Source: Amphiscolops sp. MND2022 (taxonomy: Eukaryota). Taken from it: a stretch of DNA of 64,000 nucleotides. The stretch's first letter is position 1. Each line of letters begins with the position of its first letter. The translations under genes were made by a program, and so were the position numbers. The stretch spans positions 75,270,001 through 75,334,000 of the forward strand of contig OZ076409.1 in NCBI GenBank assembly GCA_964187785.1. Direction: 5' to 3'. Shown in pieces: positions 1 through 35,819 of the stretch. The notes beneath the pieces were generated by a model. It made no database searches and had not been told where the DNA came from. It saw only the letters and a list, made by a program, of their open reading frames with translations.

Positions 1-742
1 TTGTGTTTAAAGGGTACAAATGTTTGGTGTTTTATGGATAACAGTACCTATTAGGTGTTTCGACGGTATGCAGTTGTGAACATAGTCATGAAACCTTGTG
101 GGGGGTAACGGTATATAGCACCGGAAGTCCAAAACGTTGGAGACAGGATAAGTTTTTTGGTTTTAAAACGTCTTTCGGCCTACTTTTGTCGACTATTATG
201 GTCTATTTTTGAAAAATAAAATTTTTCCATATAGTTTCAGAGACTCCGAAACCTCAACCAACATAACCGTTACCTTATGATAGCCTTTCAAGTTGGCCTG
301 GTGTCAACTTGGAAGGGCTATCCTTCAAAAATCATTAATCAAGTATGTTTTTGAGTATGTTTGTATTACTTTAGAATCAATTAGAGCTTAAAGGAAAGTT
401 TGCCAACGACAAAAACTATGTCGTGATGATTCCGTTATTAGAATACTTGTTAACAAAGTTTTAAAAACGTTGATTTTTTACATATCAAATGTGTCCTAAA
501 TGCCAGAAAACCTCTTTACCAAACAAATGGTATTGATTGAATTGTATATAACAGCTAATAAAAGTTCAAACTGAATATTACGTTTCATTTTGGAAGCTGA
601 AACGTCATTTTATAGTTTCATTAACGTCAACGCCACATACTTTACATCAACGCCCACCGTCCGTAGGCATGCCGAGGCATGCCTTTCGACGACGTATACC
701 AAATTCCTTTAACACAACACCCCCGAGCGCGGTAGCCGCTAG
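1..742 (+). mobile_element. Family A unit, 3' part (truncated by window edge)
   Basis: Matches the 3' part of 45636-47614. Carries the 44-bp hairpin (279-322), the TCAACGCC pair, the SphI palindrome (665-684) and a terminal CTAG. Confidence 0.7.
279..322 (+). other. Family A 44-bp subterminal bulged hairpin (representative)
   Basis: GATAGCCTTTCAAGTTGGC ctggt GTCAACTTGGAAGGGCTATC: 19 pairs including two G-T, with one bulged G. Also at ~2275, ~37332, ~39305, ~47151 and ~49147. Confidence 0.85.
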
Positions 743-2736
743 GTGCGGGGGGGTAACCCCAACTTTTTTCTTGGAGGAATCGGGTAGGGTCCTGATTCCG
801 AGTTCAGTGCCGCCAGCTATCGTTAAAAACCCATACCTTTTAAACCCGATCTCGGGAACTAACCACGCCCCTTCTTTAATTTTTTGGCCCCCACTCACTT
901 TTTGAGAGTAGATCGCCCCCCACTGGGTTCCAAGTTGGGCAAAAATGGAGGTCATGGGTAACGGGGACCGTTAAGGGGTAACTCAGGGGGTAAAATTTAT
1001 TTTTTGCGTCATATCTTTTCCCCCCGTGGATTTAGCGCTTCCGGTCAGCAGACAAAACCTCATGTACGTGATAAGGGGCCTCCGTAGGTCCAAACAAAAT
1101 TTTTCTATCATGCACCGTTACGGACTTGCCCCCCCGGCCCAACCGTTATTTTGCCGGAAATTGCCTTTTTTGACAGGAAAGGAGTCGTCTGAGCACGGAG
1201 TCGCTTGGTAATGTTTTGTAGTGCATCTGGAGACGTGTTGGGGGACATGTAGTTTGCCGACCCCAGTTTACCCCTCGGACGGGAAATGACCGTTATGTGA
1301 GTTTTAAAAATGCCCCCCTTCAATTTTCCCCGCAATTTCCGGTGTGAAGGAGTGGGAGTAGGGTGTCGGGTGCCATATATCAAAAGTAGGTTTAGACAAG
1401 GACCAACCGGAAACATGTGGTTTCGGACCCCCTGACCCAACCCGTTAGCCGCTATTAGGGTGATCGCCTCCTTTTTTTGCTGTTAAAACCGGAAAACGGG
1501 CATTGAGGGGTAAATATCTCGTGAACGCGTGGAGCAATCGTGTCCATCACTACTACAAGGTTTCATACCCATGATATGGTGCCTTCAGGGGGGCAAACAG
1601 ATTACCGCTATCTATCACCGTTACCGACTTGGCCCCCCAGCCTAACCGCTATGTGACCGGAAATTGCACTTTTTGAGCCCAAAGGGTCGATCCTAGCCGG
1701 GCAACGATAGGTAACATATTGTAGTACTCATTGAGACGAGTTGGGGGATCTAGTTTCAGTCACCCCCGTTACCCCTTGAGACCGGAAATGACCGTTATGT
1801 GAGTAGAATTGCAATTTTTATACCTTTTGAAGGGCATTTAGAAGCGGAAGGAATGGTAATAGGTGCTTGGACACTATATGATGTAATGGAGGTCGTGAGG
1901 AGAGCATTCGGAAGTAACCGTTACGTTGACCCCAAAGTCCCCCTGGTACCGTTAACAACCGGAAATGGCCAGATTTTGTGTTTGTAGGGTACAAATGTTT
2001 GGTATTTTATGGATAAAAGTACCTGGAAGGTGTTTTAAAGGCCTCCAGAAGTGAACATAGTCAAGAAACTTTGTGGGGGGTAACGGTATATAGCACCGGA
2101 AGTCCAAACCGTTAGTTACAGAATAGGTTTTTTGGTTTCAAAATGTCTTTAGGCGTAGTTTTGTGGGTGGAATCGTCATAATATCAACTAATACGGACTT
2201 TTTTCGGAAATAAAATTTTTTCACATTAGTTTCAGGGACCTCCAATGTTTCAGTCAACATAACCGTTACATTTTGATAGCCTTTCAAGTTGGCCTGGTGT
2301 CAACTTGGAAGGGCTATCCTTCTAAAATCGTTAATCAAGAGTGTTTTTGGGTAGGTATATGTTGCATTAGTACCAATTAGAGCTTCATCAACAGTTTGCC
2401 AACGGCAAAAACGATGTCGTGATAATTCCGTTATAAGAATATTAATTAACAAATTGTTTACAAAGTTGATTTTTTTCATTTAAAATGTGTCCTAATGCCA
2501 CCAAATTGAATAAAATAATAAATGGTATTGACTAAAACTAAATAACATTGAAAAAGAACATCAACATTTTTATTAGGTCTCATTATGGAAGCTGAAACCT
2601 CACGTTTTAACTTGATTAACGTCAACGCCACATACTTTACATCAACGCCCACCGTCTGTGGGCATGCCGAGGCATGCCCTTCGACGACGTATACCAAACA
2701 ACCTCCATATCTACACCCACCCGCGGTAGCAGCTAG
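743..2736 (+). mobile_element. Family A unit (1994 bp), putative non-autonomous cassette
   Basis: Starts GTGCGGGGGGGTAACCCC, has the GGGTAGGGTCC box 39 bp in, is rich in ACCGTTA/CCGGAAAT, and shares the 3' terminal block with family B. Mobility of family A is inferred from shared ends; no A-unit indel is seen. Confidence 0.7.
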
Positions 2737-3698
2737 GTGCCGGGATTTCTATTCGTTCGAGTATGTGGCGCGTGTGGGTAGGGCCCCTGGCGCGCTCTTT
2801 TATTTCGGGTACACCTACTCCAAATTCACGATGTGATTTCGACGATCTCGTAAACTAGCCACACGATTTGGCTGAAATTTGGCACACGTACCCCCCTCGG
2901 CACGGTGAAGATGATTTTCTACTGACGTTTTTCCCGCTAAACATTTTTTGTTGACCAAAATAACGGTTTTTGGGGTAAAATTTTCAACTTTTTTTAAATT
3001 TCATCTTATATCTCGCCACGGGTACACGCTAGCGCTTCCAAACCTTGCTGACGAAAGTTTGCAAACTGTCTCAGGAATGCTGTGTGAAATTTTCAGCTCA
3101 ATCGGACTTAAACTCGAGGAGATATAGCGTTTTTCCGGAGCGGGGGGGTTTCATTTTTCTAACGGTCCAGCTTATCTTTGCCATTTTTTCGAAAATGCAC
3201 TCGCCTAAAGGCCTCCCCTGGCCGGTTTTACTCCCAAAAAAACCATTTGGCCCTAAATACGGAGTTTCAGCGTTCTAGCATTCTCGGGCGAAAAGTTGTG
3301 GGACTTAGAAAATTTCAAAAATTTTCAAAAAAATTTTTTTTTGTTATTTGGGCCCCCAAAGTGGGGGAAAGGACCCCCCAACCATTAATTTGAGTGAATG
3401 CATGTGCAAAGCCCTTGTATAGAGGAGAAAAATGCCGTTTAGAACGTCTTTTTATCTTTACTCAACGTTGACTTATGACGTTTTGAAGGTGACCGTTAGA
3501 TATGGAAAATTGATGTTTTGAGTATTTATCTCATCTGAAAGCCATTGAGATACAACATGTTTTGCTCAAAACGGGTTTCATTGCAGTTTCGCTGTCTATT
3601 AACACCCTTTGGTGACTTTTGACATATTTTTGCTTTTATATAAAACCAATTTTTTGTGCATTTTTTCTTTTTTTTTCATCTAATATCTTGAAACAGTT

Positions 3699-3742
3699 GA
3701 GTACATTCCATCTCCCTTCCCGGGGGAGATGAGAATGTACTC
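3699..3742 (+). other. Family B 44-bp subterminal bulged hairpin (representative)
   Basis: GAGTACATTC CATCTCCC ttcccgg GGGAGATG A GAATGTACTC: arms are reverse complements with one unpaired A. Confidence 0.9.
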
Positions 3743-3907
3743 GCTAAAAGCCAAGAACTACGGCCAATACCTTCCCGAGCTATGCACTACAAATATTGCA
3801 TATGCATGCAGACCTTTTGATACATTTTTATCTTTGTAGATTGACTGGAAAAACCGAAAACTCTGTCCTGATTATACAAAGTTTCCTCACAACGACACAT
3901 GTTTACG

Positions 3908-3976
3908 TCAACGCCCCATAGTTCTTATCAACGCCCCCCGTCCGTGGGCATGCCGAGGCATGCCCTTCGACGACGT
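3908..3976 (+). other. 3' terminal block: 2x TCAACGCC, then GGGCATGCC-GA-GGCATGCCC palindrome, then TTCGACGACG (representative; in all intact A and B units)
   Basis: Nearly invariant across otherwise unalignable A and B bodies. The palindrome is at 3946-3965, and lies ~35-55 bp before the CTAG depending on the unit. Confidence 0.9.
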
Positions 3977-4006
3977 GCACCAAAATATATTCGAGCGCGG
4001 TAGCCG

Positions 4007-4013
4007 CTAGGTG
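4007..4013 (+). other. Junction / putative recombination or nicking site CTAG|GTG (representative of 47)
   Basis: CTRGGTG occurs at every intact unit boundary, and all four unit indels map to it. Confidence 0.85.
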
Positions 4014-7000
4014 CCGGGATTTCTATTCGATAAAGTATGTGGCGCGCCTTGGGTAGGGTCCCTTGCGCGCTCTTGGGTATGGTGTTCACCAGCTAGGAAA
4101 CAGGGGTCGATTTTTCGGGATCTCCTAAACTAGCCACACGATTTGGCTGAAATTTGGCACACGTACTCCCCTCGGCACGGTGAAGATGATTTCCTACTGA
4201 CATTTTTCCCGCAAAATTTTTTTTGTTGTCCAAAATAACGGTTTTTGGGGTAAAATTTTGAATTTTTTTTAAATTTTATCTTATATCTCGCCACGGGTTC
4301 ACGCTAGCGCTTCAAAACCCTGCTAAAGAAAGCTTGCAAACTGTCTCAGGAATGCGGTGTGAAATTTTCAGCTCAATCGGACTTAAACTCGGGGAGATAT
4401 AGAGTTTTTCCGGAGCGGGGGGGTTTCATTTTTCTAACGGTCCAGCTTATCTTTGCCATTTTTTCGAAAATGCACTCGCCTAAAGGCCTCCCCTGGCCGG
4501 TTTTATTCCCAGCAAAACCATTTGGCCCTAAATACGGAGTTTCAGCGTTCCAGCATTCCCGGGCGAAAAGTTGTGGGACTTAGAAAAGTTCAAAAAATTT
4601 CAAAAAAATTTTTTTCCGTTTTCCGCCCTCCCCCCCTAGGGGAAAAGACCCCCCAACCAGTAATTTGAGTGAATTCATGTGGAAAGGCCATGTTTAGAGG
4701 AGAAAAATACCGTTTAGATCGTCTTTTTATCTTAACTCAACGTTGACTTATGACGTTTTGAAGGTGATGTTTGGAGGTGTAAAGCACGTGAATAGTAAAC
4801 GTTATGAGTATTTATCTGATCTGAAAGCCATTGAGATGCAATATGGTTTGCTCAAAACGTAATTCATGGCAGTTTGGCAATCAATCAACACCCTTTGTTG
4901 TCGTTTGACAGACTTTTTTGTTGTTATAATAAAAAATTTTGTGTATTTATTCATTTTTTTCTCATCAAATAACTTGAAACAGTTGAGTACATTCCATCCC
5001 CCCCTTCCGGGGGAGATGAGAATGTACTCGCAAAAAGCACCGAACTACGACCCTTACCTTCCCGAGCTACGCAGTATAAGGACTACATATTGGTTCCGAC
5101 ATTTTCATAGAGTTAAATCTTGGTAATCTGTCTGGATATGCAGAAAAACCAGCACGTGCTTTTTTATACCAAGTTGCTCACAACGACAATTATTTTATAT
5201 CAACGCCCCCATATTTATCAACGCCCCCCGTCCGTGGGCATGCCGAGGCATGCCCTTCGACGACGTATACCAAGATATGTTCGAGCGCGTTAGCCTAGGT
5301 GGCCGTGTCTTTTCGACGTGCTTTTGCATTGAGGAGTGGGTAGGGCCCCGCGACGACCTAGAAGAATTGGATGCTCACCGAAACGTGCAGAATTCTACGA
5401 GATCTCATAGTTTGAGCCATACGATTTTTCTGAAATTTGGCATGTGGCCTGGAATTGGTGAGTAGGTAAAACGTGTAGAAGGTAATTTTTCCCAAATTCC
5501 ATTGTGAGAGGAGATATGGGCAAATAACGGACCCAAAATTGGGGAAAATGCACTTTTTTCAAGTTTGTCAGCCAATATCTCATTTCCAGGTGCCCGTAGC
5601 GTTCCGCACGTGGACGTCAATATTGCTCAACGCTGTTGGAAGAGTGCGTGGACAAATTTTGGTTCAAATCGGACTGAAACTTGGCGAGAAATTAACGGTT
5701 TTTTGGGCGTTTCCGGGGTAAATTTTTTAACGGTCCAGCTTATCTTTGCCATTTTTTCGAAAATGTACATGCCTAAAGGCCTCCCCCTGGCCGAATTTAC
5801 TCCCAGCAAACCCATTTGGCCCTAAATACGGAGTTTCAGCTGTCCAGCATTTCCGGGCGAAAAGTTGTGGGACTTTGAAAAATTTCAAAATTTTTCAAAA
5901 ATTTTTTTTTCCGTTTTCCGGGCCCCCCAATGAAGGGGAACGACCCCCCAACCAGTATTTTGAGTAATTTCATGAGGAAAGCCCATGTTTAGAGGAGAAA
6001 ATGCCGCTTAGAACGTCTTTTTATCTTAACTTGATGTTGACTTATGATCTTTTGAGTAGCGTATAACACGTGATCACAGTAGTGAAAACCCTAATTTTCA
6101 AAAATTTTCAAACCATAACGCATGAAAAGAACCTGGAAAAGGTTCCGATGGGTCAGTTGGGATGTCTGAAGCATGTGTACATTCCCGTAGTGTATAGCGG
6201 ATGTATTTGGGACTTATTAGAAATTGTGATATGTTTTATACAAGTCTTTGTTTCTCTTAGAATCTTATGCAGTTGAGTACATTCCATCTCCCTCTCAGGG
6301 GAGATGTGAATGTACGTTTGCCAAATGCCTTGTATATTTCACATCTTTGATGGATTCAAATAACTAAACAAGTGTGATTTGCGTTTGCCGAACCACTGCG
6401 ACAAAACATCCTAAATCTATAGCGAGTATGTATGGTTTTTGTCTTTAGTGTTTCGTCTTGTGTAGCCGACTTCCACATCCAAATATCAACGCCCGCCGTC
6501 CGTAGGCATGCCGAGGCATGCCTTTCGACGACGTATGCCAAATGCCCAATGCCACGCTGTCATTATCGCTAGGTGCCGGGATTTCTATTCGTTCGAGTAT
6601 GTGGCGCGTGTGGGTAGGGCCCCTGGCGCGCTCTTGTGTTTCGGGTTTTCCTACTCCTAAACCGCGTTCAGATTTTCGGGATCTCGTAAACTAGCCATAC
6701 GATTTGGCTGAAATTTGGCACACGTACCCCCCTCGGCACGGTGAAGATGATTCCCTACTGACGTTTTGCCCGCTAAACATTTTTTGTTGACCAAAATAAC
6801 GGTTTTTGGTGGAAAATTTTCAACTTTTTTTAAAATTCATCTTATATCTCGCCCCAGGTTTACGCTAGCGCTTCAAAACCTTGCTGACGAAAGTTTGCAA
6901 ACTGTCTCAGGAATGCGGTGTGAAATTTTCAGCTCAATCGGACTTAAACTCGAGGAGATATAGCGTTTTTCCGGAGCGGGGGGGTTTCATTTTTCTAACG

Positions 7001-7840
7001 GTCCAGCGTATCTTTGCCATTTTTTCGAAAATGCACTCGCCTAAAGGCCTCCCCTGGCCGGTTTTACTCCCAAAAAAACCATTTGGCCCTAAATACGGGG
7101 TTTCAGCGTTCTAGCATTTTCGGGCGAAAAGTTGTGGGACTTAGAATATTTCAAAAATTTTCAAAAAAATTTTTTTCCGTTATTTGGGCCCCCAATGTGG
7201 GGGAAAGGACCCCCCAACCAGTATTTTGAGTGAATGCATGTGCAAAGCGCTTGTTTAGAGGAGAAAAATGTCGTTTAGAACGTCTTTTTATCTTTACTCA
7301 ACGTTGACTTTTGTCGTTTTGAAGGTGACCGTTAGATATGGAAAATTGATGTTTTGAGTATTTATCTCATCTGAAAGCCATTGAGATACAACATGTTTTG
7401 CTCAAAACGTGTTTCATTGCAGTATCGCTGTCCATTAACACCCTTTGGTGACTTTTGACATATTTTTTTTATATATAATATCACTTTTTTGTGCATTTTT
7501 TCGTTTTTTTCTCATCTAATATCTTGAAACAGTTGAGTACATTCCATCTCCCTTCCCGGGGGAGATGAGAATGTACTCGCTAAAGGCCATGAACTACGGC
7601 CTATACCTTCCCGAGCTACGCACTACAATTATTGCATATGCATGCAGACCTTTTGATACATTTTTATCTTTATAGATTGACTGGACAAACTGAAAACTCT
7701 GTCCTGATTATACAAAGTTACCTCACAACGACACATGTTTACGTCAACGCTCCATACTTTACATCAACGCCCACCGTCCGTGGGCATGCCGAGGCATGCC
7801 CTTCGACGACGTATAGCCACTCAAACGCGGTAGCCGCTAG

Positions 7841-8899
7841 GTGGTCGGGTGTTTTACCTTTACAGAGTAGTGCGAGGCCGGGTAGGGTCCCGTGACGAGC
7901 TTGAAGAATAGCCTGCTAAAAATATACATGTTGGGGGGGGGGTCTACGGAGACGATCTCGAAAATGAACCGTTAGAATTTATTCAAACTTTGCATGCGGA
8001 CATAGAATCAAAATGTAAGAACTTTTTCCTACTGGCACTTTTCGCTCCATACCCTGTGACGGAAGTTATGAGCAAATGTATGTCGAAATCACCCATTTTT
8101 CGCATCTTTTCAGTCGCTGCTCCTCAGCCATTGGAGCCAATAGGCCGAAACTTTTTGTGTGAGGTACAAATGAAGTGGGCTACAAGATGGCCAAAAATTT
8201 TTGGCCAGGTCCTAATACATCGGGAAATATGATAGAAAATATACACCAAAAAAGGTGATTTTTTGACACTTTTTATCATGACTTCCGAAGTGCCCAATGG
8301 AATAGGTAGTGCCTATGGATAAAAATGAATGGTTTTATGTTTAATCGAAAGAGGAACAAATTTTGGTTTTTTTGGCCAAAAAAAAGTTCTACAAAAGTTC
8401 TACCAAAATTCGAAAAATTTAGAATTATTCCAAAAAAAAGGTTTTTTCGTCTTTTTTGATGTTTTTTCACATTTTGAGGTCAAAAACGAGGTACCCGAGC
8501 ACTTACACTGACTTTTTAGGGGAATTTGACACATTTAATTTTTATTTTTGGTTAATGATTACACTTTTAAAGTTTTAATCCCAAATTACTGCAATCTTTT
8601 CTCAGTTGTTGGAATTCTATGTTTGTTGGTAAATGACATGTAGAAAGATCGCCGATGTTCCGGGAGAACGCAAAGCGTTTCGGAGGAAGATTGGCGACAA
8701 ACGATAAAAGTCTGTGCAACTTATGTGCTTCCAATGAGGTGCTTGGTAGAATTATCAAGATGAAAAAATAACTTTTTTGAGGTAGTTTGTTGTGAAATGA
8801 AAACGATTAAAGTTTACAATTTTAAGTTGCACCAACTTCAGTTTCAATCAAGTATTGTCTGAATAGGCCTTACTGGTAGTTGGTACCTGCCTCCACTGG
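7841..8899 (+). mobile_element. Family C unit C1 (1059 bp)
   Basis: Starts GTGGTCGGG, has GGGTAGGGTCC 39 bp in, ends GCCTCCACTGG, and lacks the SphI block. Second copy at 55774-56833. Confidence 0.75.
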
Positions 8900-11800
8900 G
8901 TGGCCGGAAATTTTTTTTTCAGCAAAATCTTTGCCATTGGGGGAGGGGCCCCGGATGGCCAGTAGTACGGGATAGCTTCCTACCAAATCCAGGCGGAAAA
9001 AACGTGATTTCGGAAACTAGCCGTCAGAATTTGCTCAAATTTTGCATACGGCTTCCTATGACAATCCTAAGAACTAATCCCTACTGGCATTTTGCCCAAA
9101 AAACGCAAAAAGTTGGTCAAAATCTTAGTTTTTTGGTCAAAAAATGGCGTTTTTTCGAAAAAAATTTTTTTCAGAGACAATTACTCGTAACTGGTTCACC
9201 CAGCGCAAAAACGCCTAGCTGATTTATTGTTGGGCATTTCATGAGAAGTGCGTATACAAATTTTCGTCCAGATCGGAAACAAATTGACTAAGTATTAGCC
9301 GGAATTCGGACGCATTTTTTCGCAAATTTTTGAAAACCTAGTCTATCTCTGCCGTTTTTTGCCCAGATTTTTTTCCAGGTCCTCTCCTAAAGGCCTCCCC
9401 TGGCCGGTTTACTTCCCAGAAAAACCATTTGGCCCTAAATACGGAGTTTCAGCGTTCTAGCATTCCCGGGCGAAAAGATGTGGGACTTAGAAAAAATTCA
9501 AAATTTTTCAAAAAATTTTTTTTTCGTTTTCCGGCCCCCCAATGAAGGGGAACGACCCCCCAACGAGGATTTTTGGTGAATTCACGTGGAAAGGCCTTGT
9601 TTTGTGGAGCAAATTGCCGTTTAGAGCGACTTTTTATCTTAACTTGACGTTGACCTCTGTCGTTTTGAATTTGATATTAGTATGTGTTGAGCATGTGAAA
9701 AGTTGATGATTTCAGTTGTTCTCTCGTGTTCAAGCCATTGAGATACAAGCGGTAGTGATCAAAATGTGATTTATCGCAATTTGGTGGTGCTTTTGGTGTA
9801 TTTTGATTCTTTTAAATAAAAAGTTGTTCTTTATATATTTGGTGTATTGATTCAAATGAACAAGAAACAGTTGAGTACATTTCATCTCCCCCCTTGTGGG
9901 GGAGATGAGGATGTACCCGCTAAATGACACGCACAATGGCCCAATTTTATTTTTATGCGACGTTTTCTAGGCTTTTGCGCAAGCCCACTAAAATTTAGAC
10001 TGGTTTCCTTTTCTTTTACTCCAAAATTTTCCGTACTAACCACCTTACGCACCACCAGCTCAACGTAACATCTGTAACGTCAACGCCACACACTCTCACT
10101 AACGCCCACCGTCCGTGGGCATGCCGAGGCATGCCCTTCGACGACGTATGCCAAATAGCGCCACAGGGCGCAAACTTGTCCGCTAGGTGCCGGGATTTCC
10201 ATTCGATAAGGAATTCTGCGCGTGTGGGTAGGGCCCCTGGCGCGCTCCTGTGTTTTCGGTTTTCCTACTCCTAAATAGACCCCCTGAATTCCGGGATCTC
10301 CCAAACTATCCATACGATTTGGCTGAAATTTGGCACACGTACCCCCCTCGGCACGGTGAAGATGATTTCCTACTGACGTTTTTCCCGCTAAACATTTTTT
10401 GTTGACCAAAATAACGGTTTTTGGGGTAAAATTTTGAACTTTTTTTAAATTTCATCTTATATCTCGCCACGGGTACACGCTAGCGCTTCCAAACCTTGCT
10501 GACGAAAGTTTGCAAACTGTCTCAGGAATGCTGTGTGAAATTTTCAGCTCAATCGGACTTAAACTCGAGGAGATATAGCGTTTTCCCGGAGCGGGGGGGT
10601 TTCAATTTTCTAACGGTCCAGCTTATCTTTGCCATTTTTTCGAAAATGCACTCGCCTAAAGGCCTCCCCTGGCCGGTTTTATTCCCAACAAAACCATTTG
10701 GCCCTAAATACGGAGTTTCAGCGTTCCAGCATTCCCGGGCGAAAAGTTGTGGGACTTAGAAAAGTTCAAAAATTTTCAAAAAAAAATTTTTCCGTTATTT
10801 GGGCCCTCAAAGTGGGGGAAAAGACCCCCCAACCAGTAAAGCAAGTGAATGCATGTGGAAAGCCCTTGTTTAGACGAGAAAAATGCCGTCTAGAACGTCT
10901 TTTTATCTTAACTTGACATTGACTTTTGTCGTTTTGAAGGTGACCGTTAGATACGGAAAATTGATGTTTTGAGTATTTATCCCATCTGAAAGCCATTGAG
11001 ATACAACATGTTTTGCTCAAAACGTGTTTCATTGCAGTTTCGCTGTCCATTATCACCCTTTGGTGTCTTTTCACGTAATTTTCGTTTCTATAATAACAAT
11101 TTTTTTGTGTATTTATTCATTTTATTCTCATCAAATAACTTGAAACAGTTGAGTACATTCCATCTCCCTTCCCGGGGGAGATGAGAATGTACTCGCTAAA
11201 GGTCAGGAACTACGGTCTATATCTTCCACAACACAAATGGGATTGCAAATGGTTTCAGTTTGTCGCAGAAAACTTCTTTTTGCCCTCTGTGACTCGACAA
11301 AATGAACGTTTCTTACTTACTTTGAAACTCAGCATACCACAACTCATCTCTAACGTCAGCGCCCCCCTACTTGCATCAACGCCCACCGTCCGTGGGCATG
11401 CCGAGGCATGCCCTTCGACGACGTATACCAAGATATACCTGGAGCGCGGTAGCCGCTAGGTGGCCGGAAATTTTTTTTTTCATCAAAATCTTTGCCATTG
11501 GGGGAGGGGCCCCGGATGGCCAGTAGTACGGGATAGCTTCCTACCAAATCCAGATGGAAAAAACGTGATTTCGGAAACTAGCCGTCAGAATTTGCTCAAA
11601 TTTTGCATACGGCTTCCTATGACAATCCTAAGAACTAATCCCTACTAGCATTTTGCCCAAAAAACGCAAAAAGTTGGTCAAAATCTTAGTTTTTTGGTCG
11701 AAAAATGGCGTTTTTTCGAAAAAATTTTTTTTCAGAGACAATTACTCGTAACTGGTTCACCCAGCGCAAAAACGCCTAGCTGATTTATTGTTGAGGACTT

Positions 11801-14800
11801 CATGAGGAGTGCGTATACAAATTTTCGTCCAAATCGGATAAAAGTTGATTGAGAAATAACTGAAAATTTGAGGCATTTTTTTGGAAATTTTTGAAAACCT
11901 AGTCTATCTCTGCCGTTTTTTGCCCAGATTTTTTTCCAGGTCCTCTCCTAAAGGCCTCCCCTGGCCGGTTTACTTCCCAGAAAAACCATTTGGCCCTAAA
12001 TACGGAGTTTCAGCGTTCTAGCATTCCCGGGCGAAAAGATGTGGGACTTAGAAAAAATTCAAAATTTTTCAAAAATTTTTTTTTCGTTTTCCGGCCCCCC
12101 AATGAAGGGGAACGACCCCCCAACGAGGATTTTTGGTGAATTCACGTGGAAAGGCCTTGTTTTGTGGAGCAAATTGCCGTTTAGAGCGACTTTTTATCTT
12201 AACTTGACGTTGACCTCTGTCGTTTTGAATTTGATATTAGTATGTGTTGAGCATGTGAAAAGTTGATGATTTCAGTTGCTCTCTCGTGTTCAAGCCATTG
12301 AGATACAAGCGGTAGTGATCAAAATGTGATTTATCGCAATTTGGTGGTGCTTTTGGTGTATTTTGATTCTTTTAAATAAAAAGTTGTTCTTTATATATTT
12401 GGTGTATTGATTCAAATGAACAAGAAACAGTTGAGTACATTTCATCTCCCCCCTTGTGGGGGAGATGAGGATGTACCCTCTAAATGACACGCACAATGGC
12501 CCAATTTTATTTTTATGCGACGTTTTCTAGGCTTTTGCGCAAGCCCACTAAAATTTAGACTGGTTTCCTTTTCTTTTACTCCAAAATTTTCCGTACTAAC
12601 CACCTTACCCACCACCAGCTCAACGTAACATCTGTAACGTCAACGCCACACACTCTCACTAACGCCCACCGTCCGTGGGCATGCCGAGGCATGCCCTTCG
12701 ACGACGTATGCCAAATAGCGCCACAGGGCGCCCAATTTTGTCTAGGTGCCGGGATTTCCATTCGATAAGGAATTCTGCGCGTGTGGGTAGGGCCCCTGGC
12801 GCGCTCCTGTGTTTTCGGTTTTCCTACTCCAAATTCACACCCCAGTTATCTCCGATCTCGTAAACTATCCATACGATTTGGCTGAAATTTGGCACACGTA
12901 CCCCCCTCGGCACGGTGAAGATGATTTCCTACTGACGTTTTTCCCGCTAAACATTTTTTGTTGACCAAAATAACGGTTTTTGGGGTAAAATTTTCAACTT
13001 TTTTTAAATTTTATCTTATATCTCGCCACGGGTACACGCTAGCGCTTCCAAACCTTGCTGACGAAAGTTTGCAAACTGTCTCAGGACTGCTGTGTGAAAT
13101 TTTCAGCTCAATCGGACTTAAACTCGAGGAGATATAGCGTTTTTCCGGAGCGGGGGGGTTTCATTTTTCTAACGGTCCAGCTTATCTTTGCCATTTTTTC
13201 GAAAATGCACTCGCCTAAAGGCCTCCCCTGGCCGGTTTTATTCCCAGCAAAACCATTTGGCCCTAAATACGGAGTTTCAGCGTTCCAGCATTCCCGGGCG
13301 AAAAGTTGTGGGACTTAGAAAATTTCAAAAATTTTCAAAAATTTTTTTTCCGTTATTTGGGCCCCCAAAGTGGGGGAAAAGACCCCCCAACCAGTAAAGC
13401 AAGTGAATGCATGTGCAAAGCCCTTGTTTAGAGGAGAAAAATGCCGTTTAGAACGTCTTTTTATCTTGGCTCAACGTTGACTTATGACGTTTTGAAGGTG
13501 ATGTTTGGAGGTGTAAATCACGTGAATAGTAAACGTTATGAGTATTTATCTGATCTGAAAGCCATTGAGATGCAATATGGTTTGCTCAAAACGTAATTCA
13601 TGGCAGTTTGGCAATCAATCAACACCCTTTGTTGTCGTTTGACATACTTTTTTGTTGTTATAATAAAAATTTTGTGTATTTGTTCATTTTTTTCTCATCA
13701 AATAACTTGAAACAGTTGAGTACATTCCATCCCCCCTTCCGGGGGAGATGAGAATGTACTCGCAAAAAGCAGCGAATTACGGCCCTTACCTTCCCGAGCT
13801 ACGCAGTATAAGGATTACATATTGGTTCCGACATTTTCATAGAGTTAAATCTTGGTAATCTGTCTGGATATGCAGAAAAACCAGCACGTGCTTTTTTATA
13901 CCAAGTTGCTTACAACGACAATTATTTTATATCAACGCCCCCATATTTATCAACGCCCCCCGTCAGTGGGCATGCCGAGGCATGCCCTTCGACGACGTAT
14001 ACCAAGATATACATCGAGCGCGTTAGCCTAGGTGCCGGTGTTTTTTTACACAATGGCGGATGTTGCGCGGTTGGGGAGGGTCCCTGACGCGCTCCCGGGA
14101 TTTCGGATTTTTTAACCTTTACGTACCCATCAAAAATTTTGGGATCTCGAAAACTAGCCGTACGATTTGGCTGAAATTTGGCACACGTACCCCCCTCGGC
14201 ACGGTGAAGATGATTCCCTACTGACGTTTTGCTCGCTAAACATTTTTTGTTGACCAAAATAACGGTTTTTGGGGTAAATTTTTCAACTTTTTTTAAATTT
14301 TATCTTATATCTCGCCACGGGTTTACGCTAGCGCTTCCAAACCTTGCTGACGAAACCTTGCAAACTGTCTTAGGAATGCGGTGTGAAATTTTCAGCTCAA
14401 TCGGACTCAAACTCGGGGAGATATAGCGTTTTTCCGGAGCGGGGGGGTTTCATTTTTCTAACGGTCCAGCTTATCTTTGCCATTTTTTCGAAAATGCACT
14501 CGCCTAAAAGCCTCCCCTGGCCGGTTTTATTCCCAGCAAAACCATTTGGCCCTAAATACGGAGTTTCAGCGTTCCAGCATTTCCGGGCGAAAAGTTGTGG
14601 GACTTAGAAAATTTCAAAAATTTTCAAAAAATTTTTTTTCCGTTATTTGGGCCCCCAAAGTGGGGGAAAAGACCCCCCAACCAGTAAAGCAAGTGAATGC
14701 ATGTGCAAAGCCCTTGTTTGGACGAGAAAAATTCTGTTTAGAACGTCTTTTTATCTTGGCTCAACGTTGACTTATGACGTTTTGAAGGTGATGTTTGGAG

Positions 14801-17800
14801 GTGTAAAGCAAGTGAATAGTAAACGTTATGAGTATTTATCTGATCTGAAAGCCATTGAGATGCAATATGGTTTGCTCAAAACGTAATTCATTGCAGTTTG
14901 GCAATCAATCAACACCCTTTGTTGTCGTTTGACATACTTTTTTGTTGTTATAATAAAAAATTTTGTGTATTTATTCATTTTTTTCTCATCAAATAACTTG
15001 GAACAGTTGAGTACATTCCATCCCCCCCTTCCGGGGGAGATGAGAATGTACTCGCAAAAAGCACCGAACTACGGCCCTTACCTTCCCGAGCTACGCAGTA
15101 TAAGGATTACATATTGGTTCCGACGTTTTCATAGAGTTATATCTTGGTAATCTGTCTGGATATGCCGAAAAATCAGCACGTGCCTTTTAATACCAAGTTG
15201 CTCACAACGACAATTATTTTATATCAACGCCCCCATATTTATCAACGCCCCCCGTCCGTGGGCATGCCGAGGCATGCCCTTCGACGACCCGCACCAAAAT
15301 ATGCGTTAGCGCGGTAGCTGCTAGGTGGCCGGAAATTTTTTTTTCATCAAAATCTTTGCCATTGGGGGAGGGGCCCCGGATGGCCAGTAGTACGGGATAG
15401 CTTCCTACCAAATCCAGATGGAAAAAACGTGATTTTGGAAACTAGCCGTCAGAATTTGCTCAAATTTTGCATACGGCTTCCTATAACAATCCTAAGAACT
15501 AATCCCTACTGGCATTTTGCCCAAAAAACGCAAAAAGTTGGTCATAATCTTAGTTTTTTGGTCAAAAAATGGCGTTTTTTCGAAAAATTTTTTTTTCAGA
15601 GACAATTACTCGTAACTGGTTCACCCAGCGCAAAAACGCCTAGCTGATTTATTGTTGGGCACTTCATGAGGAGTGCGTATACAAATTTTCGTCCAGATCG
15701 GAAAAAAAATGACTAAGTATTAGCCGGAATTCGGACGCATTTTTTCGCAAATTTTTGAAAACCTAGTCTATCTCTGCCGTTTTTTGCCCAGATTTTTTTC
15801 TAGACCCTCTCCTAAAGGCCTCCCCTGGCCGGATTACCTCTCAGCAAAACCATTTGGCCCTAAATACGAAGTTTCAGCGTTCTAGCATTCTCGGGCGAAA
15901 AGTTGTGGGACTTAGAAAAATTTTTTTGAAAACGCAAAATGTGTAAAGTCAACTTCAGGCCTCCCAAAGTCAAGGAACTTCCACACAACTAGTATTGCAA
16001 GTGAATGCATGTGGAAAGTACTCGGATAGACGAGAAAAATGAGCTATTATAAATCTCTGTAGCTTAACCTGACGTTGACTTATGACAATTTTAGTGTGAG
16101 CTTGCTATGTGAGAAAAAAATTCAAAATTGGAAATCGAAGCTAAGTCTCATCCAAAACTCATCGGAACACGTTCAATCCATCCCAGAGCGGTTTAATTCC
16201 AGCTATATAATGCAGCAACACTATTCAAGACCATTTGATCCACTTACATTAGTTTTGACACCGTATTATTCATCCGAGAGCACAAAACAGTTGAGTACAT
16301 TCCATCTCCCTTTCGGGGGAGATGAGAATGTACTCGCTAAAGTCCAGGTACTACAGCCCATATTTGCTTTTATGCGACGCTCTTATGCTAGTGCGCATAC
16401 TTTTTAATCGTTTAACTGAATTTTCTTCTGTCTGCACTTTGACTTTGACTTGACATATAGTGAACGTTTTGTCTTACAACTTACAAATGAGTAACGTCAA
16501 CGCCCCATCCTTGCATCAACGCCCACCGTCCGTGGGCATGCCGAGGCATGCCCTTCGACGACGTATGCCAAGATATATCCCAAGCGCGGTAGCAGCTAGG
16601 TGCCGGGATTTCTATTCGATAAAGTATGTGGCGCGTGTGGGTAGGGTCCCTGGCGCGCTCTTGGGTATGGTGTTCACCAGCTAGGAAATAGGGGTCGATT
16701 TTTCGGGATCTCCTAAACTAGCCACACGATTTGGCTGAAATTTGGCACACGTACTCCCCTCGGCACGGTGAAGATGATTTCCTACTGACGTTTTTCCCGC
16801 AAAATTTTTTTTGTTGTCCAAAATAACGGTTTTTGGGGTGAAATTTTGATTTTTTTTTAAATTTTATCTTATATCTCGCCACCGGTTTACGCTAGCGCTT
16901 CAAAACCCTGCTAAAGAAAGCTTGCAAACTGTCTCAGGAATGCTGTGTGAAAATTTCAGCTCAATCGGACTTAAACTCAGGGAGATATAGCGTTTTTCCG
17001 GAGCGGGGGGGTTTCATTTTTCTAACGGTCCAGCTTATCTTAGCCATTTTTTCGAAAATGTACTCGCCTAAAGACCTCCCCTGGCCGGTTTTATTCCCAG
17101 CAAAACCATTTGGCCCTAAATACGGAGTTTCAGCGTTCCAGCATTCCCGGGCGAAAAGTTGTGGGACTTAGAAAAGTTCAAAAATTTTCAAAAAATTTTT
17201 TTTCCGTTTTCCGCCCTCCCCCCCGAGGGGAAAAGACCCCCAACCAGTAATTTGAGTGAATTCATGTGGAAAGGCCATGTTTAGAGGAGAAAAATCTCGT
17301 TTAAATCGTCTTTTTATCTTTATTCAACGTTGACTTATGACGTTTTAAAGGTGATGTTTGGAGGTGTGAAGCACGTGAAAAGTAAACGTTATGAGTATTT
17401 ATCTGATCTGAAAGCCATTGAGATGCAACCTGTATTGCTCAAAACGTAATTCATATCAGTTTGGTAGTCAATCAACACCCTTTGTTGTCATTTGACATCT
17501 TTTTTTGTTGATATAAGAAAAAATTTCGTGTATTTATTCATTTTTTTCTCATCAAATAACTTGAAACAGTTGAGTACATTCCATCCCCCCTTCACGGGGG
17601 AGATGAGAATGTACTCGCAAAAAGCCCCGAACTACGGCCCTTACCTTCCTGAGCTACGCAGTATAAAGATTGCATATTGGTTCCGACATTTTCATAGAGT
17701 TATATCTTGGTAATCTGTCTGGGTATGCAGAAAAACCAGCACGTGCTTTTTTATACCAAGTTGCTCACAACGACATTTATTTTATATCAACGCCCCCATA

Positions 17801-20800
17801 TTTATCAACGCCCCCCGTCCGTGGGCATGCCGAGGCATGCCCTTCGACGACGTATACCAAGATATGTTCAAGCGCGTTAGCCTAGGTGCCGGGATTTCCA
17901 TTCGATAAGGAATTCTGCGCGTGTGGGTAGGGCCCCTGGCGCGCTCCTGTGTTTTGGGTTTTCCTACTCTAAATTCACACATCAGTTATCTCGGATCTCG
18001 AAAACTAGCCACACGATTTGGCTAAAATTTGGCACACAGCTCCGTTGGAACATTGTAAGAACAAATCCCTACTGACGTTTTGCCCGCTAAACATTTTTTG
18101 TTGGTCAAAAATGCGATTTTCCGACAAAATTTTTGACTTTTTTTTCTTTTTCAACTCATATCTCGCCACAGGGCTACGCTAGCGCTTTGCAACCTATGAT
18201 CCTTTTTTGTAGGGCATTGCATGTAGAACACGTATGCCAAATTTGGTGGCGATCGGACTTGAACTCAGGGAGATATAACGATTTTTTAGGTGCATTTTTT
18301 GACATTTTTTGCAATTGCTGATTTATCTTTGCCGTTTTTTGCCCAGATTTTTTTTGAGACACTCTCCTAAAGACCTCCCCTGGCCGGTTTACCTCCCAGC
18401 AAAACCATTTGGCCCTAAATACGAAGTTTCAGCGTTCTAGCATTCCCGGGCGAAAAGTTGTGGGCTTAGAATAATTTTTTGGAAACGCAAAATGTGTAAA
18501 GTCAACTTCAGGCCTCCCAAAGTCAAGGAACTTCCACACAACTAGTATTGCAAGTGGATGCATGTGGAAAGTACTGGGATAGACGAGAAAAATGAGCTAT
18601 AGAACGACTCTGTAGCTTAACTTGACGTTGACTTATGATGTTTTGAGTGTGTGCTTACTAAGGGGTCCGAAATTGAAAATTTTTAAAGAAAATTAATATC
18701 GTTAAAAATTCATCGGAATGCCTGCAATATACAGTAGAGCGTGTTCAATTGTAGCTGACTAATGCATCAACGCTGTTCAAGGTCTTTCAACTCAGTTTCA
18801 AATTTTTTTACACTGTATTATCCATCCGAGAGTTCGAAACAGTTGAGTACATTCCATCTCCCTCCCGAGGGAGATGAGAATGTACTCGCTAAAGTACAGA
18901 TACCACGACCCATATTTGTTTCTCTGCGACGCAAACATTTGCTAGTGCACATAAATAGTGATCTTTTGACTGAATTCTGTATTTACATTGACGTGACATA
19001 TGCTGAACGTTCGGTTCTTACAACATACACATGACAAACGTCAACGCCACATACTGTTACCAACGCCCACCGTCCGTGGGCATGCCGAGGCATGCCCTTC
19101 GACGACGTATGCCAAATACCTTTGACCGACGCGCACTCTCCCGCTAGGTGCCGGGATTTCTATTCGATAAAGTATGTGGCGCGTGTGGGTAGGGTCCCTG
19201 GCGCGCTCTTGGGTATGGTGTTCACCAGCTAGGAAATAGGGGTCGATTTTTCGGGATCTCGTAAACTAGCCACACGATTTGGCTGAAATTTGGCACACGT
19301 ACTCCCCTCGGCACGGTGAAGATGATTTCCTACTGACGTTTTTCCCGCAAAATTTTTTTTGTTGTCCAAAATAACGGTTTTTGGGGTAAAATTTTGAATT
19401 TTTTTTAAATTTTATCTTATATCTCGCCACCGGTTTAGGCTAGCGCTTCAAAACCCTGCTAAAGAAAGCTTGCAAACTGTCTCAGGAATGCGGTGTGAAA
19501 TTTTCAGCTCAATCGGACTTAAACTCGGGGAGATATAGCGTTTTTCCGGAGCGGGGGGGTTTCATTTTTCTAACGGTCCAGCTTATCTTAGCCATTTTTT
19601 CGAAAATGTACTCGCCTAAAGACCTCCCCTGGCCGGTTTTATTCCCAGCAAAACCATTTGGCCCTAAATACGGAGTTTCAGCGTTCCAGCATTCCCGGGC
19701 GAAAAGTTGTGGGACTTAGAAAAATTCAAAAATTTTCAAAAAAAAATTTTTCCGTTTTCCGCCCTCCCCCCCTAGGGGAAAAGACCCCCCAACCAGTAAT
19801 TTGAGTGAATTCATGTGGAAAGGCCATGTTTAGACGAAAAAATTGCCGTTTAGAACGTCTTTATATCTCAACCTGACATTGACTTATGAAGCTTTAAAGG
19901 TGATGTTTGGACGTGTGAAGCATGTAAAAAAGGAATTTTTTGATTTTATTTCATCAGAAAGTCATTGAATTACACGCTGTGAAGCCCAGAGCGTGGTTTC
20001 TAATAGTTTGGTATCGTTTAAACGCATTTTGGTGTCTTTTTACTCTGTTTAAAAAACTTTTCTCCTGAAAATTAATAAATTTTGATTACTTTTCTTACTT
20101 TCCATTAATTTTTTTTTCTTATATTTTTACTTGAAACAGTTGAGTACATTCCATCTCCCTTCCCGGGGGAGATGAGAATGTACTCGCAAAAAGCCGCGAA
20201 CTACGGCCCATACCTTCCCGAGATACGCAGTATAAAGATAACATAATGGTCCAGACATTTTAATGGAGTTGTATCTTGGTAATATGTCTGGATTTGCAGA
20301 AAAATCAGCACGTGCCATTTTATACCAAGTTGCTCGCAACGACAATTAATTTAAATCAACGCCCCCCACAAAAATCAACGCCCCCCGTCCGTGGGCATGC
20401 CGAGGCATGCCCTTCGACGACGTGCACCAAAATATGCCCCGAGCGCGTTAGCAGCTAGGTGCCGGGATTTCTATTCGTTCGAGTATGTGGCGCGTGTGGG
20501 TAGGGCCCCTGGCGCGCTCTTTTATTTCGGGTACACCTACTCCAAATTCACGATGTGATTTCGACGATCTCGTAAACTAGCCATACGATTTGGCTGAAAT
20601 TTGGCACACGTACCCCCCTCGGCACGGTGAAGATGATTCCCTACTGACGTTTTGCCCGCTAAACATTTTTTGTTGACCAAAATAACGGTTTTTGGTGGAA
20701 AATTTTTGATTTTTTTTAAAATTCATCTTATATCTCGCCACGGGTTTACGCTAGCGCTTCAAAACCTTGCTGACGAAAGTTTGCAAACTGTCTCAGGAAT

Positions 20801-23800
20801 GCGGTGTGAAATTTTCAGCTCAATCGGACTTAAACTCGAGGAGATATAGCGTTTTTCCGGAGCGGGGGGGTTTCATTTTTCTAACGGTCCAGCTTATCTT
20901 TGCCATTTTTTCGAAAATGCACTCGCCTAAAGGCCTCCCCTGGCCGGTTTTATTCCCAGCAAAACCATTTGGCCCTAAATACGGAGTTTCAGCGTTCTAG
21001 CATTCTCGGGCGAAAAGTTGTGGGACTTAGAAAATTCAAAAATTTTCAAAAAAATTTTTTTTTGTTATTTGGGCCCCCAAAGTGGGGGAAAGGACCCCCC
21101 AACCATTAATTTGAGTGAATGCATGTGCAAAGCCCTTGTATAGAGGAGAAAAATGCCGTTTAGAACGTCTTTTTATCTTTACTCAACATTGACTTATGAC
21201 GTTTTGAAGGTGACCGTTAGAAATGGAAAATTGATGTTTTGAGTATTTATCTCATCTGAAAGCCATTGAGATACAACATGTTTTGCTCAAAACGGGTTTC
21301 ATTGCAGTTTCGCTGTCTATTAACACCCTTTGGTGACTTTTGACATATTTTTGCTTTTATATAAAACCAATTTTTTGTGCATTTTTTCTTTTTTTTTCAT
21401 CTAATATCTTGAAACAGTTGAGTACATTCCATCTCCCTTCCCGGGGGAGATGAGAATGTACTCGCTAAAAGCCAAGAACTACGGCCAAAACCTTCCCGAG
21501 CTACGCACTACAAATATTGCATATGCATGCAGACCTTTTGATACATTTTTATCTTTGTAGATTGACTGGAAAAACCGAAAACTATGTCCTGATTATACAA
21601 AGTTTCCTCACAACGACACATGTTTACGTCAACGCCCCATAGTTCTTATCAACGCCCCCCGTCCGTGGGCATGCCGTGGCATGCCCTTCGACGACGTGCA
21701 CCAAAATATATTCGAGCGCGGTAGCCGCTAGGTGCCGGTGTTTTTTTACACAATGGGGGAAGTTGCGCGTGTGGGGAGGGTCCCTGACGCGCTCCCGGGA
21801 TTTCGGATTTTTTAACCTTTACGTACCCATCAAAAATTTTGGGATCTCGAAAACTAGCCGTACGATTTGGCTGAAATTTGGCACACGTACCCCCCTCGGC
21901 ACGGTGAAGATGATTCCCTACTGACGTTTTGCTCGCTAAACATTTTTTGTTGACCAAAATAACGGTTTTTGGGGTAAAATTTTCAACTTTTTTTAAATTT
22001 CATCTTATATCTCGCCACAGGTGCACGCTAGCGCTTCCAAACCTTGCTGACGAAAGGTCGCAAACTGTCTCAGGAATGCTGTGTGAAATTTTCAGCTCAA
22101 TCGGACTTAAACTCGAGGAGATATAGCGTTTTTCCGCAGCGGGGGGGTTTCATTTTTCTAACGGTCCAGCTTATCTTTGCCATTTTTTCAAAAATGCACT
22201 CGCCTAAAGGCCTCCCCTGGCCGGTTTTATTCCCAGCAAAACCATTTGGCCCTAAATACGGAGTTTCAGCGTTCCAGCATTCCCGGGCGAAAAGTTGTGG
22301 GACTTAGAATTTTTCAAAAATTTTCAAAAATTTTTTTTTCCGTTATTTGGGCCCCCAAAGTGGGGGAAAAGACCCCCCAACCAGTAAAGCAAGTGAATGC
22401 ATGTGGAAAGCCCTTGTTTAGACGAGAAAAATGGCGTTTAGAACGTTTTTTTATCGTAACTTGACATTGACTTTTGTCGTTTTGAAGGTGACCGTTAGAT
22501 ACGGAAAATTGATGTTTTGAGTGTTTATCCCATCTGAAAGCCATTGAGATACAACATGTTTTGCTCAAAACGTGTTTCATTGCAGTTTCGCTGTCCATTA
22601 ACACCCTTTGGTGTCTTTTGACGTAATTTTCTTTTCTATAACAACAATTTCTTTGTGTATTTATTCATTTTTTTCTCATCAAATAACTTGAAACAGTTGA
22701 GTACATTCCATCTCCCTTCCCGGGGGAGATGAGAATGTACTCGCTAAAGGTCAGGAACTACGGTCTATATCTTCCACAACACAAAAGAGATTGCAAATTG
22801 TTTCAGTTTGTCGCAGAAAACTTCTTTTTGCACTCTGTGACTCGACAAAGTGAACGTTTCTTACTTACTTTGAATCTCACCATACCACAACTCATCTCTA
22901 ACGTCAACGCCCCCCACACACATCAACGCCCCCCGTCCGTGGGCATGCCGAGGCATGCCCTTCGACGACGTATAGCAAAATATATTCGAACGCGGTAGCG
23001 GCTAGGTGCCGGGATTTCTATTCGTTCGAGTATGTGGCGCGTGTGGGTAGGGCCCCTGGCGCGCTCTTGTGTTTGGGGGTTTCCTACTTCTAAATCACGT
23101 TCAGATTTCCGGGATCTCGTAAACTATCCATACGATTTGGCTGAAATTTGGCACACGTACCCCCCTCGGCACGGTGAAGATGATTTCCTACTGACGTTTT
23201 TCCCGCTAAACATTTTTTGTTGACCAAAATAACGGTTTTTGGTGGAAAATTTTTGATTTTTTTTAAATTTTATCTTATATCTCGCCACGGGTCCACGCTA
23301 GCGCTTCCAAACCTTGCTGACGAAACCTAGCGAACTGTCTCAGGAATGCTGTGTGAAATTTTCAGCTCAATCGGACTTAAACTCGGGGAGATATAGCGTT
23401 TTTCCGGAGCGGGGGGGTTTCATTTTTCTAACGGTCCAGCTTATCTTTGCCATTTTTTCGAAAATGCACTCGCCTAAAGGCCTCCCCTGGCCGGTTTTAC
23501 TCCCAAAAAAACCATTTGGCCCTAAATACGGAGTTTCAGCGTTCTAGCATTCCGGGGCGAAAAGTTGTGGTACTTAGTAAATTTCAAAAATTTTCAAATT
23601 TTTTTTTTCGTTATTTGGGCCCCCAAAGTGGGGGAAAAGACCCCCCAACCAGTAATTTGAGTGAATTCATGTGGAAAGGCCATGTTTAGCGGCGAAAAAT
23701 GCTTTTTAGATCGTCTTTTTATTTTAACCTGTTGTTGACTTATGTTGTTTTGAAGGTGATGTTTGGATGTGTGAAGCATGTGAAAAGGTAATTTTTTGTG

Positions 23801-35800: not shown

Positions 35801-35819
35801 CCATAACGCGTTAGCCTAG
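8900..35819 (+). mobile_element. Run of 21 family B units (1262-1311 bp) of intermixed subfamilies
   Basis: 5' types: B1 (GTGCCGG..., most units), B2 (GTGGCCGTGTC; 26864, 28149), B3 (GTGGCCGGAAATT; 8900, 11460, 15325), B4 (body CACAGCTCCGTTGGAAC; 17886, 33271). Unit 11460-12745 is precisely absent in copy 2. Confidence 0.8.

Follow-up and report, generated by a model that had tools for sequence, protein, structure and literature searches.

A mixed-family tandem array in Amphiscolops sp. exchanges whole units at a GGTG junction core, as expected of mobile cassettes

Introduction

Bacterial integron cassettes and the hairpin elements of the IS200/IS605 type lie in one orientation, carry structured end sites and are gained or lost singly at a short core. 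The turnover of tandem arrays is usually credited to unequal exchange and slippage. Here we describe a tandem array that works like the bacterial systems, in a 64,000-nucleotide stretch of Amphiscolops sp. MND2022 (assembly GCA_964187785.1, contig OZ076409.1, positions 75,270,001 to 75,334,000 of the forward strand). This whole stretch is called the window, and coordinates are counted from its first letter. The array differs from integrons in its gene-less cassettes, in having no integrase alongside in the window, in its 1-2-kb units and in its eukaryotic host. Our starting point was the unit at 11459-12744 (U09), which is present in one and missing from the other of two nearly identical blocks, the exchange falling at the 4-bp core GGTG. 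The array is best explained as an accumulation of non-autonomous mobile cassettes that prefer their own end-to-start junction as target.

Tandem Helitron arrays and Helitron self-insertions have already been published (PMC5876387, PMC5148889, PMC11934779 and PMC13404089). As Helitron1/HLE1 is described in parts of PMC5876387, PMC5148889 and PMC11417382, the array resembles it in its non-coding units, in a 3' end where CTAG or CTGG comes after a hairpin, in polar joints, in the lack of a target duplication and in the gain of copies. The end features given for Cryptons in passages of PMC9977147 and PMC3212892 are also found here, with GGTG at both ends, a single core at 4/4 empty sites and no inverted ends. 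Replitrons, as portrayed in sections of PMC10288648, are HUH-type elements with short direct end repeats, insertion after RG and a terminal hairpin; the array reads AG or GG followed by GTG. The comparison drew also on passages of PMC5753468 and PMC4067079.

Results

Whole-unit differences between twin blocks

The whole window is one head-to-tail array in a single orientation that extends past both window ends. Unit boundaries were set by cutting at 47 CT[A/G]GGTG sites, with each unit counted from GGTG:

742..63246, + strand: array of 46 whole units

These comprise 38 units of 1262-1311 bp, four of 1975-1994 bp, three of 1047-1060 bp and one chimera of 2714 bp. When 1-17400 was chained by exact matches against 46873-64000, six long blocks were obtained, which delimit two copies of a twin block:

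1..17352, + strand: twin block, copy 1
46873..64000, + strand: twin block, copy 2

The copies, offset by 45.6-47.9 kb, stem from a segmental duplication of very recent date or are two haplotypes placed in tandem. Across the 14,792 bp that they share (ten unit pairs plus flanks) they are 99.99% identical, with one substitution and one 1-bp indel. Against these two small changes stand four whole-unit differences, two private units in each copy:

2736..4009, + strand: U02, copy 1 only; 24-bp overlap including GGTG
11459..12744, + strand: U09, 1286 bp, in copy 1, missing from copy 2
52170..53457, + strand: U38, copy 2 only; 9-bp overlap CTAGGTGCC
54726..55772, + strand: U40, 1047 bp, of an unrelated family, copy 2 only; overlap GGTGGTC (7 bp)

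Each of the four extra units is unique in the window, the nearest relatives being 98.1, 97.0, 95.4 and 59.5% identical. The U09 event can be followed to the base:

11456..11462, + strand: left junction CTAGGTG of U09 (core GGTG 11459-11462; context GTAGCCG-CTAGGTG-GCCGG)
12742..12748, + strand: right junction CTAGGTG of U09 (core GGTG 12745-12748; context ATTTTGT-CTAGGTG-CCGGG)
59390..59396, + strand: empty junction in copy 2 (GTAGCCG-CTAGGTG-CCGGG), a U08-type tail directly on a U10-type head

A first-pass annotation of the window had proposed that U09 is precisely present or absent with a 7-bp overlap. The exact-match blocks bear this out: 7933-11462 is identical to 55867-59396, where the match breaks (11462 = 59396), and identity restarts at 12742 = 59390, so that 12742-15840 equals 59390-62488. 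The same annotation held that U09 is no simple local duplicate, and this is correct. U09 is 97.0% identical to the 8899-10185 unit and 95.9% identical to 43066-44351, and it carries a patch of another type:

11790..11890, + strand: 44352-like patch in U09, an internal mosaicism whose limits are those of the first-pass annotation and match alignment columns 350-450

At these columns identity falls to 90% and 67% against the 8899 unit and stands at 94-96% against the 44352 unit; in the tail, identity to the 8899 unit drops to 83% (50-column windows).

Two parts of the earlier proposal required revision. The 7-bp CTAGGTG boundary is present, but it is not special to the U09 event, being the junction at 44 of 47 boundaries. 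Likewise, the shared stretch at U09 is 7 bp, but all four events have in common only GGTG, at most 4 bp. At U40 nothing is shared left of GGTG (one flank reads CTA, the other CTG), and at U09 nothing is shared to its right, so the common exchange interval is GGTG. One GGTG is kept at each of the four empty sites.

Junction use tested against homology-driven exchange

The first-pass annotation had argued against generic microhomology-mediated deletion, a view that would fall if such events were as frequent at microhomologies inside units. All four large differences (4/4) lie at junctions and 0 inside units, and the argument stands. For each event the unit was aligned with both neighbours, and exact tracts of at least 7 bp lying in register inside the units were counted. 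Such tracts were plentiful and unused (55, 45, 82 and 20 per event, the longest of 102, 49, 57 and 24 bp). Under a simple, self-made null that treats the events as deletions, the probability of all four falling at the junction was 7e-8 with use proportional to tract length and 2e-7 by count, and about 7e-6 once U09, the starting point, is left out (the product of the three remaining values). Satellite-type turnover leads one to expect breakpoints spread over the monomer; the recent breakpoints lie at the junction in 4/4 cases. The recent events were not made by ordinary exchange. Older neighbour pairs gave no usable polarisation of gain versus loss.

A composite junction shared by unrelated families

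Every boundary in the array reads tail, CT[A/G], GGTG, head, exchange is confined to GGTG, and unrelated families share only the end signals. The junction heptamer is CTAGGTG at 44/47 boundaries and CTGGGTG at 3/47 (8896, 55770 and 56830), with the consensus CT[AG]GGTG[CG]. CTAGGTG occurs 44 times on the + strand, every time at a junction, and 0 times on the - strand, where base composition predicts about 3.2 per strand (GC is 41-45% across the window). GGTG itself is found elsewhere in the window 201 times on the + strand and 146 times on the - strand, and none of these copies serves as a unit boundary. This indicates that an enzyme acting here would read more than the core and that its target is the composite junction.

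At least three unit families with unrelated, non-coding bodies share this junction. Similarity between the 2-kb family and 1.28-kb units is confined to 58-90 bp of tail (blastn, four 1.28-kb units compared). The 1.05-kb units gave no blastn match to the compared 1.28-kb or 2-kb units, and they keep the head motif described below at the same spacing as the other families. Tails and heads are freely combined: a single tail type precedes as many as six head types, and a single head type trails as many as ten tails.

Four conserved features recur in the units, given here as they stand in U09:

11494..11520, + strand: head stem-loop, around the head motif at 11501-11511
12677..12696, + strand: tail palindrome GGGCATGCC-GA-GGCATGCCC, 44 copies in the window
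12435..12476, + strand: internal hairpin, 39-42 nt, z-score (z) -3.8 in U09
11986..12004, + strand: 19-bp block, invariant in 30/30 aligned 1.28-kb units

The head motif, GGG[TG]AGGG[TCG]CC, occurs 47 times on the + strand, each time 38-42 bp past a junction GGTG, and never on the - strand. Its flanks vary by family yet tend to pair: the fit of flanks to their own partners was matched by 88 of 5040 permutations across seven families. This permutation test replaced pair counting because a MAFFT alignment of 14 heads was out of register. The tail palindrome sits 39-58 bp upstream of the next GGTG, and in some units a G-C pair in it has become A-T. As a separate observation, the palindrome has the form of two adjacent half-sites of RRRCWWGYYY (twice), which we take to be the p53-type consensus, with at most one mismatch at 43 sites in 64 kb (12677-12696 and 42 others). 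The internal hairpin has a variable loop and a short bulge fixed on its 3' arm, and is present in 39 copies in the window.

Three further patterns were sought at the junctions and ends. Inverted arms round the core were no better at junctions (best match 4.4-4.8/11) than at 200 other GGTG sites (5.4). Terminal inverted repeats were equally lacking in the 36 units scored, own head-tail pairs reaching 6.6, non-cognate pairs 6.7 and interior controls 6.7. The CRESS-type nonanucleotide NANTATTAC had four scattered matches in the window, none in U09.

Copying of single units between junctions

Copying was surveyed among 36 non-twin units, with pairs pre-filtered by shared 12-mers and not mutually independent. 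In this set 18 pairs are at least 95% identical, and 18/18 have unlike neighbours on both sides (neighbour identity at most 0.90). Exact identity running rightward from the core is always at least 4 bp, exactly 4 in 9/18, with one long value of 86; leftward it is 0 in 2/18 and at most 14. As an example, positions 12745, 25577 and 30716 hold three units with mutual identities of 98.9-99.5%, each in a different setting. These data show that single units have been copied to new junctions. Since this copying took place between unlike neighbours, junctions are entry sites as well as exit sites.

Mosaic units and a chimera

Over longer times the units are internally mosaic, and their left and right halves change partners near a conserved middle block. 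The 2714-bp unit at 37794-40507 is a chimera in which 1787 bp of a 2-kb unit are followed by the terminal 918 bp of a 1.28-kb unit; its join, near 39580-39590, is the sole unit-scale break found away from the junction core. Mosaic units and the chimera together indicate that ordinary exchange also operates in the array. The 19-bp block, found at 39 other places in the window, lies in the conserved middle close to this partner switch. The block may serve as a second recognition site, or it may simply offer the best homology for exchange.

Coding content and related sequences

Stop-to-stop open reading frames of at least 110 codons number 31. A Pfam scan of 20/31 returned no family above cut-off, and a DUF3452 hit (E 0.006) was rejected as sub-threshold. 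Rfam at gathering thresholds gave 0 matches in the window, and there are 0 transfer RNAs.

A metagenome contig (L001) contains a diverged tail-head joint, with a body about 70% identical where alignable. It carries a head motif at 39 bp, a tail palindrome, the 19-mer (at 137) and one internal hairpin at 567-605 (z -5.8). Its joint reads CGA followed by GGTG, which indicates that CTA is dispensable and that GGTG and the spacing are retained.

Viral contigs had 0 matches to three tail patterns, and phage records no match. Two viral contigs matching the junction-plus-head pattern (L003 and L004) are mutually identical round the match, have no unit similarity and were put down to chance. The sole match in prokaryote genomes (L002), a 24-bp hairpin just past a stop codon with nothing further similar, was rejected.

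Among sequencing runs, one run matched (share 0.10), with six contigs, none spanning U09; no RNA run was among the matches listed, and a search for reads from the sequenced individual turned up no run. A 151-nt contig of run X1 (depth 2.1) crosses 12665-12790 with another tail variant and an unchanged core, a weak hint that bears on the reality of the joint.

Discussion

A proposed cassette mechanism

We put the probability at roughly 0.87 that a trans-acting enzyme recognises a composite site, frees one unit as a circle and inserts it at another junction. The site would consist of the tail signals, GGTG and the head stem-loop at a fixed 40 bp. The enzyme would be encoded elsewhere, and the ends of the released unit would meet in the circle at a restored junction before the circle is joined into another one. 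Unit-length circles inserting at junctions would yield a pure, polar and mixed array. Slower ordinary exchange would account for the internally mosaic units, and a large duplication for the twin block.

The enzyme itself may be a single-strand HUH/rolling-circle transposase, a tentative assignment to which we give slightly less than even odds. Such an enzyme would nick at GGTG, peel or copy one strand from junction to junction and insert it by strand transfer, with the hairpins as recognition signals. In favour of a single-strand enzyme are the hairpins at both ends, the conserved bulged hairpin inside the units, stem pairing kept more than the letters, and CTRG after the hairpin. Strict polarity, net copying, no target duplication beyond the core and no inverted core arms point the same way. 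That the enzyme belongs to some class other than HUH or Crypton-like, within the same overall mechanism, we consider improbable.

A number of observations weigh against this account. No enzyme gene was found in the 64-kb window (20/31 open reading frames scanned against Pfam), which has no open reading frame above 164 codons. The ends match no described HUH transposon, having no 5' TC, no target between A and T or between T and T, and no terminal inverted repeats, and with the palindrome standing 39-58 bp, not 10-12 bp, away from the end. Helraiser and Replitron-1 are presented without excision in passages of PMC5876387 and PMC10288648, so any proven loss of units would weigh against the assignment, and the 4-bp direct core is as in Cryptons. 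The structural signals are also uneven: two families have weak head stems (-2.2 and -4.0 kcal/mol), the head hairpin of U09 taken by itself reaches a z of -0.9, the folding of whole junction regions does not surpass that of shuffles (z +0.6 to -1.4), and the three 1.05-kb units are without the tail palindrome. Judged from its sequence, the tail palindrome may be a double-strand binding site, instead of or besides a hairpin. The simplicity of the null behind the junction probabilities belongs on this side as well.

The first-pass annotation had suggested amplifying the U09 circle junction by polymerase chain reaction (PCR). The U09 circle-type joint is absent from the 64-kb window, but it could sit in the chromosome beyond the window. 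Because tails and heads pair freely along the array, PCR on that joint would not be circle-specific.

Comparison with described elements

Going by the parts of the Helitron literature cited above, Helitron1 ends in CTRR with a hairpin 10-12 nt upstream, begins with TC and inserts between A and T. The array has CTAG/CTGG at 47/47 junctions, a palindrome 39-58 bp away and, in the metagenome contig, CGAG. Its heads begin with GGTG (a minus-strand start would be TAG or CAG after CACC), and its target is the junction. The array further differs from Helitron1 in a second conserved stem-loop at the start and in unrelated families interleaved unit by unit. Helitron1 was rejected for want of TC and of the A-T target. 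Helitron2/Helentron/HLE2 elements have short asymmetric terminal inverted repeats, insert at TT and have T-rich flanks, whereas the array shows no inverted ends (head-tail 6.6 versus controls 6.7) and the consensus CT[AG]GGTG[CG], with no TT; they too were rejected. So was a cut-and-paste DDE transposon or miniature inverted-repeat transposable element, on the lack of terminal inverted repeats.

The fuzzy ends and variable duplications given for Replitron-1 in sections of PMC10288648 are absent here, and the array window shows no Rep, unlike the Replitrons of that source. Unlike theirs, the repeat of the array is one core shared between units, and in a pure array core and target are indistinguishable.

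The sequence data thus far described leave room for a larger claim, namely an undescribed eukaryotic class of mobile DNA that builds integron-like arrays of unrelated non-coding cassettes with one junction site, its unit-length circles re-entering only at junctions. We regard this as rather unlikely. Literature searches gave no title or abstract opening on a mixed-family array in which units are shuffled at a core of GGTG; the searches did not extend to Repbase, Dfam or subscription papers, and the unit families may already be catalogued. If such a class exists, the array would be shuffled enzymatically faster than it acquires mutations.

Alternative explanations

The alternative that survives best, possible though in our view doubtful, is a Crypton-like tyrosine recombinase. 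Double-strand exchange between neighbouring GGTG cores would excise a circle that re-integrates at another junction, and copy number would increase when a unit excised from one sister chromatid is re-inserted into the other. In passages of PMC3212892 and PMC13465315, Cryptons are bounded by direct repeats of 4-6 bp and lack inverted ones. CryptonF-1_cRei, as described in part of PMC9977147, has ends CACCG, target CAYCG and clean excision, yet its copy number climbs; the array core on the minus strand is the similar CACC. The twin blocks fit as well, each having clean empty sites for units of the other, and target-specific CryptonV families are mentioned in a passage of PMC8869645. Against this, no inverted binding arms were found at the core; a classical tyrosine-recombinase site (Cre/Xer) has 11-13-bp inverted arms and a 6-8-bp spacer (passage of PMC3212892), unlike the array. 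Stems that change letters but keep pairing fit a single-strand reader better, and free core-by-core recombination might drop several units at once, whereas 4/4 events, a small sample, are single units. Passages of PMC3212892 report no terminal repeats for animal Cryptons, and no recombinase gene was seen in the window. The array also differs from CryptonF-1_cRei in using only the composite junction, in its purity and in conserved hairpins at both ends, and the passages of PMC9977147 and PMC3212892 describe no mixed-family cassette array.

A repair process of the host at a break-prone joint, in which hairpin-induced breaks would be mended by template switching on the short core, with one unit copied or dropped and no element enzyme involved, is quite unlikely. 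Hairpins do flank the junction, internal mosaicism is a sign of copying repair active in the array, and no enzyme was found in the window. However, the core and the 38-42-bp spacing are scar-free at 47/47 junctions, the 44-63 bp of tail homology immediately upstream would be the expected substrate, and unrelated families carry the same end signals.

Ordinary satellite turnover, in which an unequal crossover or a deletion at microhomology would meet the unit boundary by chance, is very unlikely. A long tandem array with higher-order duplication, unit halves switching partners, the chimera broken away from GGTG and the 24-bp overlap at the 2736 event are all in keeping with it, but the junction test on 4/4 recent events (about 7e-8, or about 7e-6 without the prompting event) and the copying of single units between unlike neighbours are not.

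Least credible is an assembly artefact, with two haplotypes or mis-joined paths in tandem, as the 99.99% identity of shared parts might suggest: none of the extra units has a second copy in the window, an assembler, as generally known, does not join on overlaps as short as 7-9 bp, the polymorphism is real even if the blocks are two haplotypes, and the joint recurs in other material, namely the metagenome contig and one run X1 contig.

Significance and minor observations

Between the twin copies, gains or losses of whole units at the 4-bp core (four events) are more numerous than point changes (two). Together with the copying of single units between unlike neighbours, this gives direct evidence at the sequence level that a large repeat array turns over enzymatically and site-specifically, and it provides a clean test for the idea that mobile elements build satellites through self-insertion. 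Because the end signals are sharply defined, they can guide a search of the host assembly for the missing enzyme. An enzyme that cuts and joins specifically at junctions, and that seems to have been active recently, would be of mechanistic and possibly of tool interest.

The 38 units of the main family measure 1281 +/- 10 bp, despite some pairs being only 63-66% identical. This narrow size possibly reflects a constraint such as circle packaging or nucleosome phasing; if the new class proposed above is real, tight unit size and conserved internal hairpins would reflect a free single-stranded circle stage. Within the 2-kb family lies a direct repeat of about 235 bp whose two copies (1069-1302 and 1572-1804) are 73% identical.

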